Shown here one piece after another: positions 21,906-31,885 of a DNA stretch of 64,000 nt; position 1 is the first letter of the stretch, and every line of letters starts with the position of its first letter. Position numbers and translations under genes: made by a program. The notes below the pieces were generated by a model, which was not told where the DNA came from, searched no databases, and saw only the letters and a program-made list of their open reading frames with translations. The stretch is from the NCBI RefSeq assembly GCF_056746865.1, contig NZ_CM163382.1. One strand, given 5' to 3'.

Positions 21906-22011
21906 GAGTGATATGAAGTCTGGACATAAACCTGAAGTCGGCATACGAGGTTGTGAATAGCGTTAAGGACAACCTGACTTAACCCCGTTCCGTCATGGTT
22001 ATGCTGCTCTT

Positions 22012-22052
22012 CTGTAAATATCCTGGCATTAGTAATGCCAGGATATTTACAG
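22012..22052. terminator. 41-bp perfect palindrome (20-bp arms, single central base) between convergent ykgG and ykgH; probable bidirectional terminator
   Basis: ctgtaaatatcctggcatta-g-taatgccaggatatttacag read directly. Confidence 0.5.
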
Positions 22053-22147
22053 TGAAAAAGACAGGAATCCATTCCTGAAGACGGGCTCCCTTCCCGGTCA
22101 TTGTCACTATAGTTTTATACAGGCACTCTCTGTCAGAATGCTGTTTA

Positions 22148-22816
22148 TTACTGCCCAGAGTTTTGTTGGTATTCATCTACCATTTTTTTGACAAGGCAAA
22201 ACATTACAGAAATTACAATGCTTATAAAAAATCCCAGAGCCAGGCAAATGGCAGCAGGGTATTTATTTTTTATTTCTGGTGAGCTTATAGTTACACAGCC
22301 ATCACCGTTCGGATACAATGACCAGTTCCTGGTCAGGTATATCATTTTTGTATAAAGCTCACTGTTAATTGCTGAAGGTGTTTGTATCTCATCGAGAACT
22401 TGCCTGCCATTATGATATTCTGACGCATACCATTTGATAATAGACGCCTGCACGCGAGATATTTCCGCTTCAGCAGTTGGTAAATCTCTCTTATCTCCTG
22501 ACCATTCCAGCTTTATTTCTCTGTTCTTGACATCTGGGCTGGTCTGAAAAAATGTAGTAATTCGCTGAATAACATCTTCAGTCATTGTGGTCTGACAGGC
22601 AAAGTTATTATTGCTATCACAGCTAACAAGTATGCCTGGTGTTGTCTGGTTTATTTTTAGGCTGTAACTCACTTTTATATTATCTTTATTGATATACAGA
22701 AACAACAGCACCATTGCCATACAGATAGTTATAATAAAAAGGATAATACGAATCTTTTTCTTCAGATAAAATAAAATCTCAATCAGATCGATATCCTGTT
22801 TGATTTGTTCACTCAT
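22148..22816 (-). CDS. ykgH: predicted membrane protein, 222 aa
   Basis: ORF with N-terminal transmembrane segment and a second near the C-terminus; position between ykgG and betA. Confidence 0.7.
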   Translation of the reverse strand: MSEQIKQDIDLIEILFYLKKKIRIILFIITICMAMVLLFLYINKDNIKVSYSLKINQTTPGILVSCDSNNNFACQTTMTEDVIQRITTFFQTSPDVKNREIKLEWSGDKRDLPTAEAEISRVQASIIKWYASEYHNGRQVLDEIQTPSAINSELYTKMIYLTRNWSLYPNGDGCVTISSPEIKNKYPAAICLALGFFISIVISVMFCLVKKMVDEYQQNSGQ

Positions 22817-23026
22817 AATATATCCAGAAAATAAAATCTGCCGCAGATAAATGAATTAATAGGCTGTATCAGGAGTGTTCGGGTTAAATATCAGCAAAAA
22901 ACCAGCATCATGAATACTGGATATGAAGCATGAGAGTTACCTCAGTGTTTTATATAAGGATTCGGTCCTCATAGTAGAACGGTAACTCTCAATCTGATAG
23001 GTTCCTGAGTCAGTTCACATCACGAC

Positions 23027-24697
23027 TCATTTTTTCGCTCTCACCGGCCTCCCATTTGCCACATAATATCCCGCCGTGCTCCTCGGCAACGCATCCTTCC
23101 CGCGAATCATATCCGCCATTTTCTCGCCAATCATAATAGTCGTGGCGTTCAAATTGCCGGTGATAATCTGCGGCATAATTGACGCATCCACCACGCGCAG
23201 GCCTTCCAGCCCGTGTACGCGGCCTTCGCCGTCAACCACTGCCATCTCGTCATAACCCATTTTGCAGGTACCGCACGGGTGGAAGGCGGTTTCGGCGTGG
23301 TTACGCACGAACTCATCGAGCTGCTCATCCGTCTGGCATTCGACACCGGGGCTGATTTCGCGGCCACGATACTGATCCAGCGCCGGTTGATGCATGATCT
23401 CGCGGGTGATGCGAATTGCGTCGCGGAACTCCTGCCAGTCCTGCTCGTGCGACATGTAGTTAAACAGAATCGCTGGATGCTGGTGCGGGTCGCGGGATTT
23501 AATCCGCACATGCCCACGGCTTGGCGAGCGCATCGATCCGACGTGGCACTGGAAGCCGTGCTCTTTCACTGCGTTCGAGCCGTTATAGTTAATCGCCACT
23601 GGCAGGAAATGGTACTGAATATTCGGCCACGCAAATTCCTCACGGCTGCGAATAAATCCGCCTGCTTCAAAGTGGTTGCTGGCACCAACGCCGGTGCCGC
23701 CAAACAGCCACTCCGCACCGATTTTCGGCTGATTCCACCACTGCAGGGCAGGGTAGAGGGAAACCGGTTCTTTGCACTCATATTGCAGGTACATCTCCAG
23801 GTGATCCTGAAGATTTTCGCCGACGCCGGGTAAATCATGCACCAGCGGAATATCAAACTCCGCCAGCAGTTCAGCGCTACCCACGCCGGAACGTTGCAGG
23901 ATCTGCGGAGAGGCGATCGCACCTGCACATAACAGCACCTCTTTATTCGCTGTCGCGCGGGTTGGAATGGTGCTGTCGCCTTCCAGCCACTCGACGCCCA
24001 CCGCGCGTTTGCCGTCAAAAATGATGTGATCGGTCATGGCGTGAGTACGAATGGTCAGGTTAGGGCGCGATTTGGCCTGATCGAGATAGCCACGCGCGGT
24101 GCTGGCGCGACGGCCATGCGGCGTGACGGTGCGATCCATCGGGCCAAAACCTTCCTGCTGATAGCCGTTGAGATCGTCCGTGCGCGGGTAGCCTGCCTGC
24201 ACGCCCGCTTCAATCATCGCTTCAAACAGCGGATTGACGCCGGGTTTGGAGGTAGTGACGCTCACCGGGCCATCGCCACCGTGGTAGTCGTTCTCGCCTA
24301 CATCGCGAGTCTCGGCCTTGCGGTAGTAGGGCAGGCAGTCGAGATAACTCCAGTTCTCCAGACCGGGTTCTTGCGCCCAGTTATCGAGATCCAGCGCGTT
24401 ACCACGGATGTAACACATGCCGTTGATCAGTGATGACCCGCCAAGCCCCTTACCGCGTCCGCACTCCATGCGACGGTTGTTCATAAACGGTTCCGGTTCC
24501 GTCTCATAGGCCCAGTTATAGCGTTTACCCTGTAGCGGGAATGCCAGCGCGGCGGGCATCTGGGTGCGGAAGTCAAAGCGATAGTCCGGGCCGCCTGCTT
24601 CAAGCAGCAGCACGGTTGTGTTCGGATCTTCAGTCAGACGGGTAGCGAGAACGTTGCCGGCTGAGCCGGCACCAATAATGATGTAGTCAAATTGCAA
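23027..24697 (-). CDS. betA: choline dehydrogenase (GMC oxidoreductase), 556 aa, probable TTG start
   Basis: FAD-binding [13 protein letters not shown] and GMC signatures; track ORF 23027..24742 extends upstream into betB, so the start was trimmed to the TTG preceding QFDYIII. Confidence 0.9.
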
Positions 24698-24710
24698 ATA
24701 AACCTCCTGG

Positions 24711-26183
24711 TTAGAATATGGACTGGAATTTAGCCATCTCAACCTGGATGGACTTCACCTGGGTGTAACTCTGGAGCGTCATCACGCCGTTCTCGCGACC
24801 AATGCCGGAGTGTTTGTAGCCGCCAACGGGCATCTCAGCAGGGGATTCGCCCCAGGTGTTGATCCAGCAAATACCCGCTTCCAGCTGATGAATGACGCGA
24901 TGCGCGCGGTTCAGGTCCGCCGTCACGATGCCCGCCGCTAGGCCGTAGTCGGTATCATTGGCGCGGCGAATCACTTCGTCCTCAGATTCATAAGTGAGAA
25001 GCGACATCACCGGACCGAAGATCTCTTCGCGCACGATGGTCATTTCGTCGCGGCAATCGGTGAACACGGTCGGTGCAACCCATGCGCCGTTATCGAAGCC
25101 ATCGCCTTTCAGTACATCGCCGCCGCACAGTACGCGCGCGCCTTCCTCTTTGCCTTTGGCGATGTAACGCAGCACGTTATCGCGATGCGGGAAGCTGACC
25201 AGCGGGCCAAAGTTAGTTTGCGGATCGAAAACGTCGCCCGCGCGAATGCGCTCAACGCGCGCCAGAATCTTTTGTTCAAATGCGGCTTTGCATTTCGCCG
25301 GAACGAAGACGCGGGTGCCGTTGGTACACACCTGACCGGAGCTGAAGAAGTTCGCCATCATGGCGATATCAGCGGCGAGATCGAGATCTGCATCGTCGAA
25401 AACGATCAGCGGCGATTTACCGCCCAGTTCCATGGTCACTTCTTTCAGGGAGGAAGCTGCCGAGTTAGCCATCACTTTTTTGCCGCTGGCGACACCGCCG
25501 GTAAATGACACTTTGGCAATGCCCGGATGATCGGTCAGATATTGCCCGGTCTCCGCGCCCACGCCCGGCAACACGTTAAATACACCGTCCGGCAGGCCCG
25601 CTTCGCTGTAAATTTCAGCCAGCTTTAACGCGGTAAGCGGGGTGACTTCGCTCGGTTTGAAGATCATTGCATTGCCTGCCGCCAGCGCCGGGGCGGATTT
25701 CCACAGGGCAATCTGGATCGGGTAGTTCCATGCGCCAATCCCTGCCACTACGCCCAGCGGTTCGCGGCGGGTATAGACAAATGACGTCTCACGCAATGGG
25801 ATCTGGCTGCCTTCCAGCGACGGGATCAGCCCGGCGTAGTACTCGAGCACGTCCGCGCCGGTAACGATATCGACGGTTGAGGTTTCCGAATACGCTTTTC
25901 CGGTGTCGAGGGTTTCCAGTTTTGCGAGTTCGTTATTGCGTTCACGCAGAATATCAACGGCCCGACGCAGAATACGCGAGCGTTCCATAGCGGTCATCGC
26001 CGCCCAGATTTTTTGCCCCTGTTGGGCACTCTTCACGGCGCGATCGACATCCTCACGCCCGGCGGCCTGCACGGTCGCCAGCACGTTACCGTTGGCCGGG
26101 TTAATGGTCTCGAAGGTGCGACCGCTGGTGGCGGAGGTATAACCACCATGTATATAAAGCTGCTGTTCTGCCATTCGGGACAT
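24711..26183 (-). CDS. betB: betaine-aldehyde dehydrogenase, 490 aa
   Basis: Aldehyde dehydrogenase motifs (ELGGKSP, catalytic-Cys region); start at MSRMAEQQ. Confidence 0.9.
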
Positions 26184-26196
26184 CACGTCTCCTCGG

Positions 26197-26784
26197 TTAA
26201 TCGGTGGGTAAATGCTGAGTAATAAAGTGACGGGTCAGCGAGTGTGCGAGAGGTTTATCCAGCGGTTTGCCGCTCAGTGCCGCGCGCAGCCATAATCCGT
26301 CAATCAGCGCGGCAAGGCCGTAGCCCGCTTCCTGTGCCTGTTGGCGCGGTAACTCGCGGTGAAATTCGCTCACCAGATTCGACAACAAGCGGCGGCTGCT
26401 CACCTGCTGCAAACGGTAAAGCATTGGCTGATGCATACTGCTGGCCCAAAACGCCAACCAGGCTTTCATCGCAGCATTACTGACCTGCGTTTCATCGAAA
26501 TTCCCGTCAACAATCGCCTGTAATCGCTGCTCTGCACTGCCCTGCGGAAGTGCATGTAATCGATTCAAAACCGCGTCACGCAGCTGACTGGTGATATCGC
26601 GCATGGTTGCTTCCAGCAGACCATTTTTGTCCCTGAAATAGTGGCTGATGATCCCCGTAGAAACGCCTGCACGGCGGGCGATCTGCGCGATCGTTGCATC
26701 GTGCATGCCCACTTCATTTATTGCTTCCAGCGTGGCGTCGATCAGTTGTCTGCGCCGGATCGACTGCATCCCCAATTTGGGCAT
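26197..26784 (-). CDS. betI: TetR-family choline-responsive repressor, 195 aa
   Basis: TetR HTH ([21 protein letters not shown]); start trimmed to MPKLGMQS. Confidence 0.9.
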
Positions 26785-26912
26785 TTTCGCCACTCCATTC
26801 ATCAGCGTTGTTTATCTATTAAAGCGGTTATTGATTGGACGTTCAATATAAAATGTGTCTTAATTGTTACGAATTTGATTTTAAATGGTAACAATAACAG
26901 TGGGGATACTGG
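26785..26912. promoter_or_regulatory. divergent betIBA / betT promoter-operator region
   Basis: 128-bp AT-rich spacer between divergently transcribed betI and betT; the regulatory role is from established knowledge of the bet locus, individual sites not mapped here. Confidence 0.5.
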
Positions 26913-28946
26913 ATGACAGACCTTTCACACAGCAGGGAAAAGGACAAAATCAATCCGGTGGTGTTTTACACTTCCGCCGGACTGATTTTGTTGTTTTCCC
27001 TGACAACGATCCTGTTTCGCGACTTCTCGGCCCTGTGGATTGGACGCACGCTGGACTGGGTCTCTAAAACCTTCGGTTGGTACTATCTGCTGGCGGCAAC
27101 GCTCTATATTGTCTTTGTGGTCTGTATCGCTTGTTCGCGTTTTGGTTCGGTGAAGCTCGGGCCAGAACAATCCAAACCGGAATTCAGTCTGCTGAGTTGG
27201 GCGGCGATGCTGTTTGCTGCCGGGATCGGTATCGACCTGATGTTCTTCTCCGTAGCCGAACCGGTAACGCAGTATATGCAGCCGCCGGAAGGCGCGGGTC
27301 AGACGATTGAGGCTGCGCGTCAGGCGATGGTCTGGACGCTGTTTCACTACGGCTTAACCGGCTGGTCGATGTATGCGCTGATGGGCATGGCGCTCGGATA
27401 CTTTAGCTATCGTTATAATTTGCCGCTCACCATCCGCTCGGCGCTGTACCCGATCTTCGGTAAACGGATTAACGGGCCGATTGGTCATTCAGTGGATATT
27501 GCAGCGGTAATCGGCACCATCTTCGGTATTGCCACTACGCTCGGTATCGGTGTGGTGCAGCTTAACTATGGCTTGAGCGTACTGTTTGATATTCCCGATT
27601 CAATGGCGGCGAAAGCGGCACTGATCGCCTTGTCGGTGATCATCGCCACGATCTCTGTCACCTCCGGTGTCGATAAGGGCATTCGTGTGTTATCGGAACT
27701 TAACGTTGCGCTGGCGCTGGGATTGATCCTTTTCGTGCTGTTTATGGGCGACACCTCGTTCCTGCTTAATGCGCTGGTGCTGAACGTTGGCGACTATGTG
27801 AATCGCTTTATGGGCATGACGCTCAACAGTTTTGCCTTCGACCGTCCGGTTGAGTGGATGAATAACTGGACGCTCTTCTTCTGGGCATGGTGGGTGGCAT
27901 GGTCGCCGTTTGTCGGCCTGTTTCTGGCGCGTATCTCGCGCGGGCGTACCATTCGCCAGTTCGTGCTGGGCACGTTGATTATTCCGTTTACCTTCACGCT
28001 GTTATGGCTCTCGGTGTTCGGCAATAGCGCGCTGTATGAAATCATCCACGGCGGCGCGGCATTTGCCGAGGAAGCGATGGTCCATCCGGAGCGCGGCTTC
28101 TACAGCCTGCTGGCGCAGTATCCGGCGTTTACCTTTAGCGCCTCCGTCGCCACCATTACTGGCCTGCTGTTTTATGTGACCTCGGCGGACTCCGGGGCGC
28201 TGGTGCTGGGGAATTTCACCTCGCAGCTTAAAGATATCAACAGCGACGCCCCCGGCTGGCTGCGCGTCTTCTGGTCGGTGGCGATTGGCCTGCTAACGCT
28301 CGGCATGCTGATGACCAACGGGATATCCGCGCTGCAAAACACCACGGTAATCATGGGGCTGCCGTTCAGCTTTGTGATTTTCTTCGTGATGGCGGGGTTG
28401 TATAAATCTCTGAAGGTAGAAGATTACCGCCGTGAAAGTGCCAACCGTGATACCGCGCCGCGACCGCTGGGGCTTCAGGATCGCCTGAGCTGGAAAAAAC
28501 GTCTCTCGCGCCTGATGAATTATCCGGGCACGCGTTACACTAAACAGATGATGGAGACGGTCTGTTACCCGGCAATGGAAGAAGTGGCGCAGGAGCTGCG
28601 GTTGCGCGGCGCGTACGTGGAGCTAAAAAGCCTGCCGCCGGAAGAGGGACAACAGTTGGGGCATCTGGATTTGTTGGTGCATATGGGCGAAGAGCAAAAC
28701 TTTGTCTATCAGATTTGGCCGCAGCAATATTCGGTGCCGGGCTTTACCTACCGCGCACGTAGCGGTAAATCGACCTACTACCGGCTGGAAACCTTCCTGT
28801 TAGAAGGCAGCCAGGGCAACGACCTGATGGACTACAGCAAAGAGCAGGTGATCACCGATATTCTTGACCAGTACGAGCGGCATCTTAACTTTATCCATCT
28901 CCATCGTGAAGCGCCGGGCCATAGCGTGATGTTCCCGGACGCGTGA
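26913..28946 (+). CDS. betT: choline transporter, BCCT family, 677 aa
   Basis: Twelve-TM BCCT-type ORF with long hydrophilic C-terminal tail. Confidence 0.9.
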   Translation: MTDLSHSREKDKINPVVFYTSAGLILLFSLTTILFRDFSALWIGRTLDWVSKTFGWYYLLAATLYIVFVVCIACSRFGSVKLGPEQSKPEFSLLSWAAMLFAAGIGIDLMFFSVAEPVTQYMQPPEGAGQTIEAARQAMVWTLFHYGLTGWSMYALMGMALGYFSYRYNLPLTIRSALYPIFGKRINGPIGHSVDIAAVIGTIFGIATTLGIGVVQLNYGLSVLFDIPDSMAAKAALIALSVIIATISVTSGVDKGIRVLSELNVALALGLILFVLFMGDTSFLLNALVLNVGDYVNRFMGMTLNSFAFDRPVEWMNNWTLFFWAWWVAWSPFVGLFLARISRGRTIRQFVLGTLIIPFTFTLLWLSVFGNSALYEIIHGGAAFAEEAMVHPERGFYSLLAQYPAFTFSASVATITGLLFYVTSADSGALVLGNFTSQLKDINSDAPGWLRVFWSVAIGLLTLGMLMTNGISALQNTTVIMGLPFSFVIFFVMAGLYKSLKVEDYRRESANRDTAPRPLGLQDRLSWKKRLSRLMNYPGTRYTKQMMETVCYPAMEEVAQELRLRGAYVELKSLPPEEGQQLGHLDLLVHMGEEQNFVYQIWPQQYSVPGFTYRARSGKSTYYRLETFLLEGSQGNDLMDYSKEQVITDILDQYERHLNFIHLHREAPGHSVMFPDA

Positions 28947-28959
28947 TTGTTATTGCATA

Positions 28960-28998
28960 AAACCGCGCCATGTCTGCATATGGCGCGGTTTCTCTTAC
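28960..28998 (+). terminator. rho-independent terminator after betT
   Basis: GC-rich hairpin aaccgcgccat-gtctgcat-atggcgcggtt followed by a T-rich tract (tctctt). Confidence 0.6.
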
Positions 28999-29822
28999 CT
29001 CTTGATACGTTATATCTGTGTACAGTTAAGCCCTTAGTATCGATTGATGATTGCCAGGCAACAGATAATAAAAAAGAAAAGAACTATTGAAGCCCAAAAC
29101 CTACGCTTGGACTGTTGTGAATGTTCAATAAGCTTAGTCTTATTTAATGTAAATATTGGTGCTAATTTGAAATGACGCTTTATTCATGGGAAACGCGTAG
29201 CGCAAATCAACTAAAATCAATGTAACTGTTTGTTGTTTAAGGTTTAATTGTCTGTGTCTGATATTTTATTGATTGTTTTAAATATTGTTTTTATTGTCAT
29301 TGTTATAATGTTGGCTATCTATTGCTGAATGGATTCAGCCTTAAAAGGCAGGTTGTTAAGGGATAGGCATAGAGTAATGACGTGTATGCATAACCAACAT
29401 CTTTACTCATTATGTCATTGAATGTTGACGCTATGTGTTTATGAGGTTGAGGTATTTTCAGTTGATCTGGATTGTTAAATTCATATAATGCGCCTTTACT
29501 CATGAATGGGCGTCAATACGTAGTGGGAAATTATAAATATTGAAATAGTCCAACTACTTCTTTATTACCAAAAATGAGTATCTGAATTTTAATATTGCAT
29601 TCTTGCGTGATTATCTCCTGAGTTTGACTTGTGATTACCTTTTTAAGGTATTTAGCGTAACTGTTTTTGAGCGAGCATCAGAGGTAAAGATAATCTTTTT
29701 GATAGTAATGTGGGATGTTATGCGTATGGCATCGCTGATGTTTATGGTTACCCCTTATGTGTGCTCAGGAATCCACAGGTAATCACTCATACTGAACAGC
29801 GATAAAAGATAAAGGTGTGTTC

Positions 29823-30911
29823 ATGAATTCATGTGATTTTCGTGTTTTTCTGCAAGAGTTCGGTACAACGGTTCATTTGTCATTGCCTGGTAGCGTATCC
29901 GAGAAAGAACGACTGCTACTCAAGCTGCTGATGCAGGGAATGTCTGTAACAGAAATATCACAGTACAGAAATCGCAGTGCAAAGACCATTTCACATCAAA
30001 AGAAACAGCTCTTTGAGAAACTGGGGATTCAGAGCGATATTACTTTCTGGCGGGATATTTTCTTTCAGTACAATCCGGAGATCATATCCGCCACGGGTAA
30101 TAATAGTCACAAATATATTAATGATAATCACTATCACCATATCGTCACGCCTGAAGCCATCAGTCTGGCGTTGGAAAACCATGAGTTTAAACCGTGGATC
30201 CAACCGGTTTTCTGCGCGCAGACTGGGGTACTGACGGGCTGTGAGGTGCTTGTCCGCTGGGAACATCCACAAACGGGAATTATCCCACCGGATCAGTTTA
30301 TTCCTCTGGCGGAGTCATCTGGTCTTATCGTCATAATGACTCGCCAGTTGATGAAACAGACTGCGGATATTCTGATGCCGGTAAAACATTTGCTGCCGGA
30401 TAATTTCCATATTGGCATCAACGTCTCGGCGGGTTGTTTTTTGGCCGCGGGATTTGAAAAAGAATGCCTGAACCTGGTCAAGAAATTAGGAAACGATAAA
30501 ATCAAACTGGTTCTCGAGCTAACGGAACGTAACCCTATTCCGGTAACGCCAGAAGCCAGAGCGATATTTGACAGCCTTCATCAGCACAACATTACCTTTG
30601 CGCTGGATGACTTTGGTACGGGTTATGCGACCTATCGTTACTTGCAGGCGTTCCCGGTCGATTTTATTAAGATCGATAAGTCATTTGTGCAAATGGCGAG
30701 CGTGGACGAAATATCCGGTCATATTGTGGACAATATTGTCGAACTGGCGCGTAAGCCTGGTCTGAGTATCGTGGCGGAAGGGGTAGAAACCCAGGAGCAG
30801 GCGGATTTAATGATCGGCAAAGGCGTTCACTTTTTGCAGGGCTATTTGTACTCTCCGCCAGTACCGGGTAATAAATTTATCTCTGAATGGGTAATGAAAG
30901 CAGGTGGTTGA
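29823..30911 (+). CDS. pdeL: c-di-GMP phosphodiesterase with N-terminal LuxR-type HTH and C-terminal EAL domain, 362 aa
   Basis: LuxR HTH (LLKLLMQGMSVTEISQYRNRSAKTISHQKKQLFEKLG) and EAL-domain motifs (ELTE, DDFGTGYA). Confidence 0.85.
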   Translation: MNSCDFRVFLQEFGTTVHLSLPGSVSEKERLLLKLLMQGMSVTEISQYRNRSAKTISHQKKQLFEKLGIQSDITFWRDIFFQYNPEIISATGNNSHKYINDNHYHHIVTPEAISLALENHEFKPWIQPVFCAQTGVLTGCEVLVRWEHPQTGIIPPDQFIPLAESSGLIVIMTRQLMKQTADILMPVKHLLPDNFHIGINVSAGCFLAAGFEKECLNLVKKLGNDKIKLVLELTERNPIPVTPEARAIFDSLHQHNITFALDDFGTGYATYRYLQAFPVDFIKIDKSFVQMASVDEISGHIVDNIVELARKPGLSIVAEGVETQEQADLMIGKGVHFLQGYLYSPPVPGNKFISEWVMKAGG

Positions 30912-30952
30912 TGTAAACCGCTATTCACAGCGCATCGGGAGGTTGGCAGCGA

Positions 30953-31885
30953 TTAATTCTCCCGATGCAGTAAATCCTGATAGATCCCCGTTAATATGCC
31001 ATTTGGCGAAAATTGTTTTTTAATCCACTGCGTCACCTGACCGGTGGCAGAGTGCTGGGTCGCCAGTAACATGCGTGAATCCTGGCGCGGATTATGGATT
31101 TGGCGGGTAACCAGCAGGGATTGCTCCATCGCCTCGCGAACCATGTAATCCGGCAAAAAACCAATTCCTTCACCTAAAATCTGGCACTGACATTTGGTGT
31201 TGAAATCTGGCACCAGAATCGACTCCTGCCCATGCAGCAACCAGCCCACTTTTTTATTAATCGTATGCGCGGTGTCTTCCACCATGATATTGGGATAGAG
31301 ACGCAGCTGGCTTTCGGCGATGGGTTCCGGCACAAAGGCTAACGGGTGATCCGGGGCGATAGCAAAAGCCCAGCGAATCGCGCCAATCTCCGTGTAATCA
31401 ATGCCGCCACCGTCCAGCAGCGTGTCGGGTGCGCCGATAGCAATATTCGCCTGATTATTAATAATCGCATCCCAGACGCCGTTATACACTTCGGTCGTCA
31501 CGGTAATCTGGCAGGTTGGAAACTGCTTTTTCAGTACCTGTAATAAGCGTGCGGTGTGTTTGGGCGTATAAAGCAGTTGGTTAATACAAATGCGCACCCG
31601 TGCTTCTATACCCTGCGAAATAGTATCGATGCTGCGTTTGATGGCGTGAAAATCATTCAGCAGGTCGGTAGCTTTGCGGAAAAAATAACGCCCGGACTCC
31701 GTTAACTCAATGCTGCGGGTACTGCGAGTGAACAGCACCACATCCAGCCCTGTTTCCATTCGCTTGATGGTGTAGCTAATGGCGGAAGTGGTTAAACCCA
31801 ACTCTTCTGCGGCTTTACTGAAGCTGCCAAAACGCGCAGCGGTAGTAAATGCCAACAGATTCTCTTCGGTAAAAATTGAGTTCAT
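30953..31885 (-). CDS. yahB: LysR-family regulator, 310 aa
   Basis: LysR HTH (FSKAAEELGLTTSAISYTIKRMETGL); divergent from the yahC–yahJ side. Confidence 0.75.
   Translation of the reverse strand: MNSIFTEENLLAFTTAARFGSFSKAAEELGLTTSAISYTIKRMETGLDVVLFTRSTRSIELTESGRYFFRKATDLLNDFHAIKRSIDTISQGIEARVRICINQLLYTPKHTARLLQVLKKQFPTCQITVTTEVYNGVWDAIINNQANIAIGAPDTLLDGGGIDYTEIGAIRWAFAIAPDHPLAFVPEPIAESQLRLYPNIMVEDTAHTINKKVGWLLHGQESILVPDFNTKCQCQILGEGIGFLPDYMVREAMEQSLLVTRQIHNPRQDSRMLLATQHSATGQVTQWIKKQFSPNGILTGIYQDLLHREN

Follow-up and report, generated by a model that had tools for sequence, protein, structure and literature searches.

Background

Promoters silenced by H-NS and reopened by an anti-silencer, of which bgl and the LeuO-dependent loci are examples, are AT-rich, have their sites spread over several hundred bp, depend on an activator that competes with H-NS and are frequently hit by insertion sequences (ISs). 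The DNA analysed here, which lies between betT and pdeL of Escherichia coli, was compared with such promoters and with the K-12 copy of the same locus. It occupies positions 28,999 to 29,822 of a stretch of 64,000 nucleotides (contig NZ_CM163382.1, RefSeq assembly GCF_056746865.1), and "the window" refers throughout to that whole stretch, in which all positions are counted.

In K-12, pdeL (yahA) is repressed by H-NS and becomes derepressed when hns is mutated, and Cra and PdeL act as its co-activators, with an input from cyclic di-GMP (c-di-GMP) (Reinders et al., bioRxiv 10.1101/2021.10.01.462762). Two PdeL boxes are distinguished, a distal, Cra-independent one (CIB) and a proximal, Cra-dependent one (CDB), and sites for IHF and Fis have been reported between them, that is, where yahV lies. 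The CIB overlaps an H-NS site, at which PdeL and H-NS compete; the CB/CDB oligonucleotide with the Cra box is bound by Cra with a dissociation constant (Kd) of 49 nM; pdeL expression is lost in a cra mutant or with a scrambled Cra box; and the fragment used for RNA-polymerase gel shifts (4695-4283) has its 3' end just past the TATAAT equivalent to 29484-29489 (all from bioRxiv 10.1101/2021.10.01.462762). The betT>yahA spacer also contains a peak of RpoD holoenzyme in SELEX (systematic evolution of ligands by exponential enrichment), for which an identical TTGATC-16-TATAAT is listed together with an H-NS site flag (Shimada et al., PMC3946193).

As for yahV, the K-12 protein was shown to be made by chromosomal epitope tagging and immunoblot (VanOrsdel et al. 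2018, PMC6001520), and the gene has been reported as an accessory gene of certain phylogroups, with a role in osmotic stress or motility proposed from its co-occurrence and location (PMC9976479). Finally, O-island 15 is described as a segment of 4643 bp with ehaA (Z0402) as its sole open reading frame (ORF) (PMC8565820).

Regulatory elements between betT and pdeL

The interval most probably constitutes the full upstream control region and the leader of pdeL, with yahV lying between the two PdeL boxes; we give this a probability of roughly 85%. The K-12 elements were placed by means of the published oligonucleotides (Table S4, bioRxiv 10.1101/2021.10.01.462762) through K-12/window alignments, and the roles of H-NS, Cra and PdeL were transferred to the window by homology with the K-12 experiments. 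Comparisons between strains refer either to the short form of the site, present in K-12 and in the window, or to an alternative form carrying ehaA, which is treated below.

The distal PdeL box was recovered as a palindrome inside the CIB fragment equivalent (Table 1). The motif AATAAG-N5-7-CTTAT has a single occurrence in the whole 64 kb, TTCAATAAGCTTAkTCTTATTT is kept in 5/5 short-type sequences, and the palindrome is conserved inside a 67-bp fragment whose identity across species is only 60-64% as a whole. Further downstream lies a Cra (FruR) box, scored against the consensus of PMC5888115. Only one such box is present per locus, it is invariant in eight Escherichia sequences of both the short and the ehaA type, and the TGA inside it is the stop codon of yahV. 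The block at 29395-29431 shows full (100%) identity with K-12 and 81-84% identity with distant short-type genomes, vs. 45-59% for the adjoining spacers. In a consensus scan, TTGATC-16-TATAAT was the best promoter match of the region (10/12), and its core is invariant, ATATTTT.AGTTGAT.TG and TATAATGCG being found in 8/8 Escherichia sequences (E. coli, E. whittamii and E. albertii). From the position of this promoter, pdeL transcription would start at about 29496. As a whole, cross-species conservation is concentrated on the elements, with 100% for the Cra box, 90% for the promoter and 81-84% for the block at 29395-29431, vs. 44-70% for the spacers.

The identity and the base composition of the region are consistent with this assignment. 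The ~1-kb stretch at the site, which belongs to the betT–pdeL locus of E. coli, is 100% identical to strain CFSAN061770, and betT and pdeL flank the region in the RefSeq annotation. With betT ending at 28946 and the pdeL ATG at 29823 (RefSeq), 876 bp separate the two coding sequences and 824 bp the betT terminator from the ATG, in line with the ~820 bp given in a preliminary description made from the sequence alone. The strong AT-richness claimed there was also borne out, since the guanine plus cytosine (GC) content of 28989-29822 is 0.34 vs. 0.50 for the whole window, the lowest of any 834-bp stretch in the 64 kb (minimum 0.339 at 29001; 1st percentile 0.371). The curved-DNA-like A/T tracts of the same description did not hold up: 15 tracts of at least 4 were counted vs. 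13.8 +/- 3.2 in composition-matched shuffles, which is no excess over chance, and AA/TT phasing at 10-11 bp is absent, the observed power being reached by 46% of the shuffles. H-NS silencing and a complex control of pdeL, which it had proposed as well, agree with what was found on the K-12 allele, namely hns derepression, H-NS binding at the CIB and the SELEX flag for the former, and the joint action of H-NS, Cra, PdeL and c-di-GMP for the latter. What had been described, the K-12 pdeL control region with yahV, is largely already known. Concerning other content, a repeat search of the region gave the terminator hairpin and two short direct repeats at chance level, and nothing else, and a Pfam scan of all six ORFs of 26-62 amino acids in the region gave no credible match.

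By analogy with K-12, the AT-rich DNA that follows the betT terminator, including the distal PdeL palindrome, would be coated and silenced by H-NS. The Cra box comes about 200 bp downstream of the CIB, next to the site equivalent to the proximal PdeL box, and is followed by the sigma-70 promoter, from which a transcript would begin at ~29496 and run through a leader of ~327 nt to the pdeL ATG. As shown for K-12, Cra on its box would let PdeL bind beside it, and at low c-di-GMP PdeL tetramers would engage both boxes, counteract H-NS at the CIB and help to recruit RNA polymerase. The outcome, again taken from K-12, would be a cooperative, bistable and self-activating switch.

Several observations weigh against this assignment. 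The centre of the Cra box is at about -164, which is far upstream for direct activation, and the start at ~29496 is a prediction from the promoter position. The binding and expression data all come from K-12, whose upstream half differs by 12% from that of the window. At the position of the CDB, K-12 oligonucleotide 4695 reads TGCTGAATGGATTCAGTCTTAATGAGTGGG and the window ...CAGCCTTAAAAGGCAGG, so that 6 of the 14 bases after CAG differ; PdeL autoregulation in the window strain is therefore only assumed. Also, a control region of this kind does not account for the last ~120 nt of the leader being so strongly conserved.

Table 1. Positions of the features located at the betT–pdeL site of the window
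Feature	Position	Strand	Remarks
betT intrinsic terminator	28960..28998	+	14-bp stem hairpin 28960-28991, then TTTCTCTT to ~28998
Replaceable segment, short form	28989..29808		820 bp; replaced elsewhere by the 4641-bp ehaA segment (O-island 15)
CIB fragment equivalent (distal, Cra-independent PdeL box)	29115..29181		Primers 4991/4997 mapped; AATAAG-N6-CTTATT at 29127-29144
yahV ortholog	29254..29328	+	GTG start, 24 codons + stop, peptide VSDILLIVLNIVFIVIVIMLAIYC; collinear with K-12 yahV (b4730)
Cra (FruR) box GCTGAATGGATTCAGC	29324..29339		15/16 match to consensus gcTGAAtCGaTTCAgc
Position of the proximal, Cra-dependent PdeL box (CDB)	29337..29352		Diverged in the window strain
Conserved block CATCTTTACTCATTATGTCATTGAATGTTGACGC	29395..29431		About -100 to -65 from the inferred start
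Sigma-70 promoter	29462..29489	+	-35 TTGATC 29462-29467, 16-bp spacer, -10 TATAAT 29484-29489
Inferred pdeL 5' leader	29496..29822	+	~327 nt; start from promoter position; Shine-Dalgarno AAGGTG 29812-29817
pdeL coding sequence	29823..30911	+	362 amino acids, RefSeq; NCBIfam LuxR-type helix-turn-helix (HTH) and EAL matches

The sole GATC (Dam site) of the region, at 29464-29467, sits within the -35 hexamer TTGATC. In K-12, pdeL (yahA) belongs to the genes whose expression falls most strongly in a dam mutant, with a log2 fold change of -3.08 (PMC11741368). In ehaA-type and non-coli short-type promoters the -35 hexamer is TTGATT, and both lack the Dam site.

The small open reading frame yahV

The preliminary description had pointed out that the interval could house a small protein gene, and had named the whole an untranslated region. 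The first point was upheld by the intact yahV frame at 29254-29328 and by the K-12 protein being made (PMC6001520). As for the second, the last ~327 nt can stand as an inferred 5' untranslated region; the rest is not one untranslated stretch, as it holds the yahV ortholog. The K-12 annotation has a 24-amino-acid 'protein YahV' between betT and pdeL, and yahV is unannotated in the RefSeq record that is identical to the window. More generally, the Prokaryotic Genome Annotation Pipeline (PGAP) calls 'protein YahV' on the K-12-type allele only, a 'hypothetical protein' on an intermediate allele and nothing on the window-type allele. Because only the K-12-type allele is named, the accessory-gene status of yahV is probably in part an annotation artefact.

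The first alternative to be weighed is that yahV is the main functional content of the interval, i.e. a genuine gene, transcribed from a promoter of its own, for a small membrane protein with a role at the protein level (for example in osmotic stress or motility), the gap being long because of the gene. It can draw on the detection of tagged YahV in K-12 (PMC6001520), on the osmotic stress or motility role suggested elsewhere (PMC9976479), on a frame that is open in 6/6 of the E. coli short-type loci read (three haplotype classes, ~3700 genomes), and on a peptide that is uniformly hydrophobic, like a single membrane helix. T-rich DNA gives hydrophobic peptides by default, however, and the substitutions do not point to a protein under constraint: K-12 and the window differ at 8 nt of yahV, all non-synonymous with 0 silent, which changes 7/24 residues (29%), although an 8:0 count is too small for significance, with a chance of ~10% under neutrality. 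Retention is no better. The frame is destroyed in Escherichia sp. E1V33 (GTG to GTA and an early TGA), replaced in SCPM-O-B-8794 by a different ORF of 17-20 codons and absent from ehaA-type genomes; at the DNA level, only the first ~40 nt are conserved, the 3' half being 44-46% identical in distant genomes. Selection on the YahV protein is thus unsupported by either the substitution pattern between K-12 and the window or the retention in E1V33, SCPM-O-B-8794 and the ehaA-type genomes. Pfam and NCBIfam hold no model for YahV, and an exact match to the window peptide is absent from a collection of 15 billion proteins. Its expression signals are poor too: the context has an in-frame TTG at 29248 and a weak Shine-Dalgarno AAGG at 29239-29242, 11 nt from the start, and no promoter upstream of 29254 reached the scan threshold. 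With these points against it, a protein-level role of yahV as the reason for the interval is rather unlikely. We read yahV as a young, fast-changing ORF, probably translated from regulatory DNA, and this fits better than a conserved protein gene.

A block TTAGTATCGATTGATGATTGCCAGGCAACAGATAATAAAAAAG at 29034-29080, upstream of both the CIB and yahV, is kept in 5/5 short-type sequences. It is below the promoter-scan threshold and could be a candidate yahV promoter or a protein-binding site.

Two alternative sequences at the same site

In a blastn comparison of the window with O157:H7, homology was found only at 28900-28988 and from 29809 on, the latter point being 14 nt before the pdeL ATG. Since homology breaks at 28988/29809, the interval marked in the preliminary description is almost exactly a replaceable segment. 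The gene order in ehaA-type genomes, including O157:H7, is betT, ehaA (a 3984-bp autotransporter adhesin gene) and pdeL, and ~1500 genomes matched only the first 89 nt of the region query. Among 5426 complete E. coli genomes, 3762 (69%) have the short form and 1402 (26%) the ehaA form. At this fixed chromosomal site, the same conserved flanks enclose either of two alternative sequences, of which the 820 bp are one. On the betT side, the flank includes the terminator, a perfect hairpin with a folding free energy of -22.5 kcal/mol (z -5.3 vs. shuffles), whose stem is common to the ehaA-type genomes up to 28988.

The two forms share a module of ~190 bp, which runs from the Cra box through the promoter to about +30 (MAFFT, eight-sequence alignment). 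The DNA upstream of ehaA has this Cra box, as GCTGAATGGATTCAGT, and this promoter core, as AGTTGATTTG ... CATATAATGCGC, with 138 bp in the window vs. 135 bp in the ehaA form between the start of the Cra box and the start of the -35 hexamer, and an nhmmer profile built from five short-type sequences finds the module in every ehaA-type locus (E 1.6e-7 to 8e-5). The ehaA-type loci also carry, once per locus and 23 bp downstream of the Cra box, between it and the promoter, the palindrome AATAAGACGATTCTTAT, whose half-sites and spacing match those of the K-12 CIB; it is also kept in E. whittamii, and E. albertii has a copy with one mismatch. PdeL of ehaA-type strains is 93% identical in amino acids to that of the window, with HTH residues 36-66 nearly identical; given this identity and the nearly unchanged HTH, it is expected to recognise the same box. 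The 141-bp gap between ehaA and pdeL has a hairpin whose T-tract is poor, and no promoter-like site was found there, which makes read-through from ehaA into pdeL plausible.

The module appears, as far as sequence comparison can tell, to be a promoter of long standing in Escherichia, which directly drives pdeL in the short form and drives ehaA in the alternative one. A more far-reaching reading, put forward tentatively since we hold it to be somewhat short of even odds, is that the module stood originally upstream of ehaA, as it still does in about a quarter of E. coli, including enterohaemorrhagic E. coli (EHEC) O157:H7. In these strains, bistable control by Cra, H-NS and PdeL/c-di-GMP would then act on EhaA and, where transcription reads through the weak ehaA terminator, possibly on pdeL too; the short form of K-12 and the window would be a rewiring that placed the switch directly on pdeL, shifted the strong PdeL box ~240 bp further upstream and created yahV from new regulatory DNA. 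In the literature searched, no paper was found that links ehaA with pdeL/yahA, Cra, H-NS or c-di-GMP, bar one gene list of a Shigella sonnei deletion, nor any mention of O-island 15 as the alternative at this site with the Cra/promoter core in common, or of a Cra box and a PdeL-type palindrome in front of ehaA.

A second alternative to the control-region assignment is that the short form is the scar left when an ancestral ehaA was lost and decayed; non-functional debris, kept AT-rich by mutation bias, would then make up most of the 820 bp. In its favour, both forms contain the Cra-box/promoter module, and the ehaA arrangement occurs in E. whittamii. In E. albertii, the DNA from this promoter to pdeL holds only fragments of ehaA, so that the gene does decay in place. 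Against such an origin, no ehaA remnant beyond the shared promoter was detected in four short-type intergenic regions by tblastn with EhaA or by word-7 blastn with the E. albertii debris and the ehaA flanks (all E >0.5). Moreover, stretches as long as the unrelated 290 bp of leader and 335 bp of upstream DNA would not remain after a simple deletion, the GC content of the leader (0.355) is well below that of ehaA (0.44-0.58), and parts of the short-specific DNA are strongly conserved, including the CIB, which is experimentally bound in K-12. An origin as a scar is hence improbable.

Concerning the relatives, the short form is also found in Escherichia E1V33 and SCPM-O-B-8794, with intergenic regions 75% and 71% and pdeL 96% and 92% identical to the window, respectively. 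Distant-mode searches for the short-specific DNA in plasmid and phage collections gave only F-prime plasmids or mislabelled chromosomes, and no phage match.

In E. albertii NBRC 107761 (locus 1-1185), the shared promoter and a PdeL-type palindrome with one mismatch are accompanied by three ehaA fragments, which amount to ~700 of 3984 nt. Decay of ehaA in E. albertii is an independent event, which has left ~1 kb of non-coding DNA between the promoter and pdeL.

Within the short form, the allele class of the window is the commonest (~1700 complete genomes). Compared with K-12, the window has 49 differences over the 400 bp of the upstream half (29000-29399), a divergence of 12% vs. ~2% for the flanking DNA. 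The derived states are split evenly between the two, 16 and 16, and the window and K-12 alleles are thus taken as two old haplotypes of weakly constrained DNA.

The putative leader of pdeL

The leader segment 29701-29822 is 87-88% identical to distant short-type genomes. A third alternative builds on this conservation: pdeL would be transcribed mainly from a promoter near its ATG, in the conserved last 120 bp, and TTGATC-16-TATAAT would serve something else. The distance of the Cra box (about -164 from the distal start) and a 9/12 promoter-like match at 29667-29694 speak in its favour, as does the unusual conservation of the proximal 120 bp. The scan, however, gave no promoter-like site in 29700-29822, the K-12 fragment that recruits RNA polymerase ends just past the TATAAT at 29489, and the SELEX paper (PMC3946193) names the same hexamers, so that a proximal promoter is distinctly improbable.

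The promoter-like site at 29667-29694 was rejected, because its -10 hexamer GATAAT becomes GATAAG or AATAGG in relatives.

An independent small RNA (sRNA), a riboswitch (for example one sensing c-di-GMP) or another structured cis-RNA in 29496-29822 is highly improbable and already weakly refuted. In its favour, the leader is long, its last ~120 nt are well conserved by comparison with 71-75% for the intergenic region overall, and RNAalifold draws a long hairpin at 29668-29769 and a pairing over the Shine-Dalgarno. Against it, an Rfam scan of 28000-31000 on both strands gave no match at E<=1, and the minimum free energy was no better than that of shuffles, with z-scores of -0.60 (full leader) and -0.56 (predicted long hairpin). 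In the RNAalifold alignment of four diverged leaders, covariation contributed only -0.94 kcal/mol and a single compensatory pair was seen. The region has no terminator-like site, and ehaA-type strains lack the entire leader but retain pdeL. The sRNA envisaged in the preliminary description accordingly found no backing in either the Rfam scan or the folding of the leader.

The leader also contains a 24-codon upstream ORF at 29708-29782 (+), MWDVMRMASLMFMVTPYVCSGIHR, which is open in two distant short-type genomes, with its stop at the same position. Its conservation looks like that of nucleotides rather than of a protein, since all substitutions are non-synonymous and no Shine-Dalgarno precedes the ORF.

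Insertion sequences and neighbouring variation

The intergenic region is a recurrent target of ISs, with sites equivalent to window positions 29136-29144, ~29400-29416, 29429 and 29731-29736. In strain AF14, an IS1A lies within the CIB palindrome, with a 9-bp target duplication of 29136-29144; CUWW06 has an IS1B between the Cra box and the promoter, and MY504 an IS3 in the leader. IS1 copies with adjacent deletions were found in EC5931, S1-KEN-05-A and GN25, the last being an ehaA-type strain in which pdeL through the cyn region is deleted.

On the betT side, Escherichia sp. E1V33, SCPM-O-B-8794 and E. whittamii lack the whole betABIT region (~21915-29008) but keep, at the junction, a hairpin homologous to the betT terminator. 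The bet operon is therefore a presence/absence segment that adjoins the site. Within it, betI (26200-26499) is a second hot spot of divergence between K-12 and the window, with 31 differences in 300 bp vs. 1-2 per 100 bp in most of betT, which suggests mosaic recombination around the bet locus. Elsewhere in the window, 58277-58993 is a tandem array of 7.6 copies of a 94-bp unit (96% matches), which we take, by its appearance, to resemble palindromic units of the repetitive extragenic palindromic (REP) and bacterial interspersed mosaic element (BIME) type.

Comparison with known systems

The cis-elements of the PdeL switch have been dissected in K-12 only, yet they vary sharply between E. coli lineages, through the 12% divergence of the upstream half, the divergence at the CDB and the frequent ISs. 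Because of this variation, the behaviour of the switch may differ between strains. Also, yahV is intact and uncalled in the commonest allele class. In ehaA strains, the gene of a biofilm/adhesion factor is preceded by a homologous promoter that combines the same Cra box with a good PdeL-type palindrome; if Cra and PdeL/c-di-GMP do control ehaA, central metabolism and c-di-GMP would be linked to an EHEC adhesin.

The K-12 pdeL region is the closest relative, with the same locus and order of elements, identical promoter hexamers and spacing, and a leader that is 95-99% identical by segment. The Cra box is the same bar its last base and the CIB palindrome the same bar one spacer base. The differences lie in a second GATC next to the CIB, present in K-12 and not in the window, in the upstream half (12%), in the CDB position (6/14 bases) and in YahV (7/24 residues), and the experimental data concern the K-12 allele only.

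O-island 15 occupies exactly the same site, shares with the window the Cra box and the -35/-10 core, almost equally spaced, and is likewise AT-rich upstream (GC 0.29). It differs by its length of 4641 bp and its 3984-bp autotransporter gene, and by having neither yahV nor the distal CIB, with AATAAGACGATTCTTAT instead. With regard to the YahV of the PMC6001520 set, the window ORF is likewise of 24 codons, GTG-initiated, fully hydrophobic and at the same position. In contrast to K-12 YahV, for which alone there is evidence of translation, the window YahV is not called by PGAP in its allele class, and it is not conserved outside E. coli.

Compared with bgl and the LeuO-type loci, finally, the pdeL region has no excess of phased A-tracts, and its anti-silencer is the product of the regulated gene itself, an enzyme that degrades c-di-GMP, from which bistability would follow.

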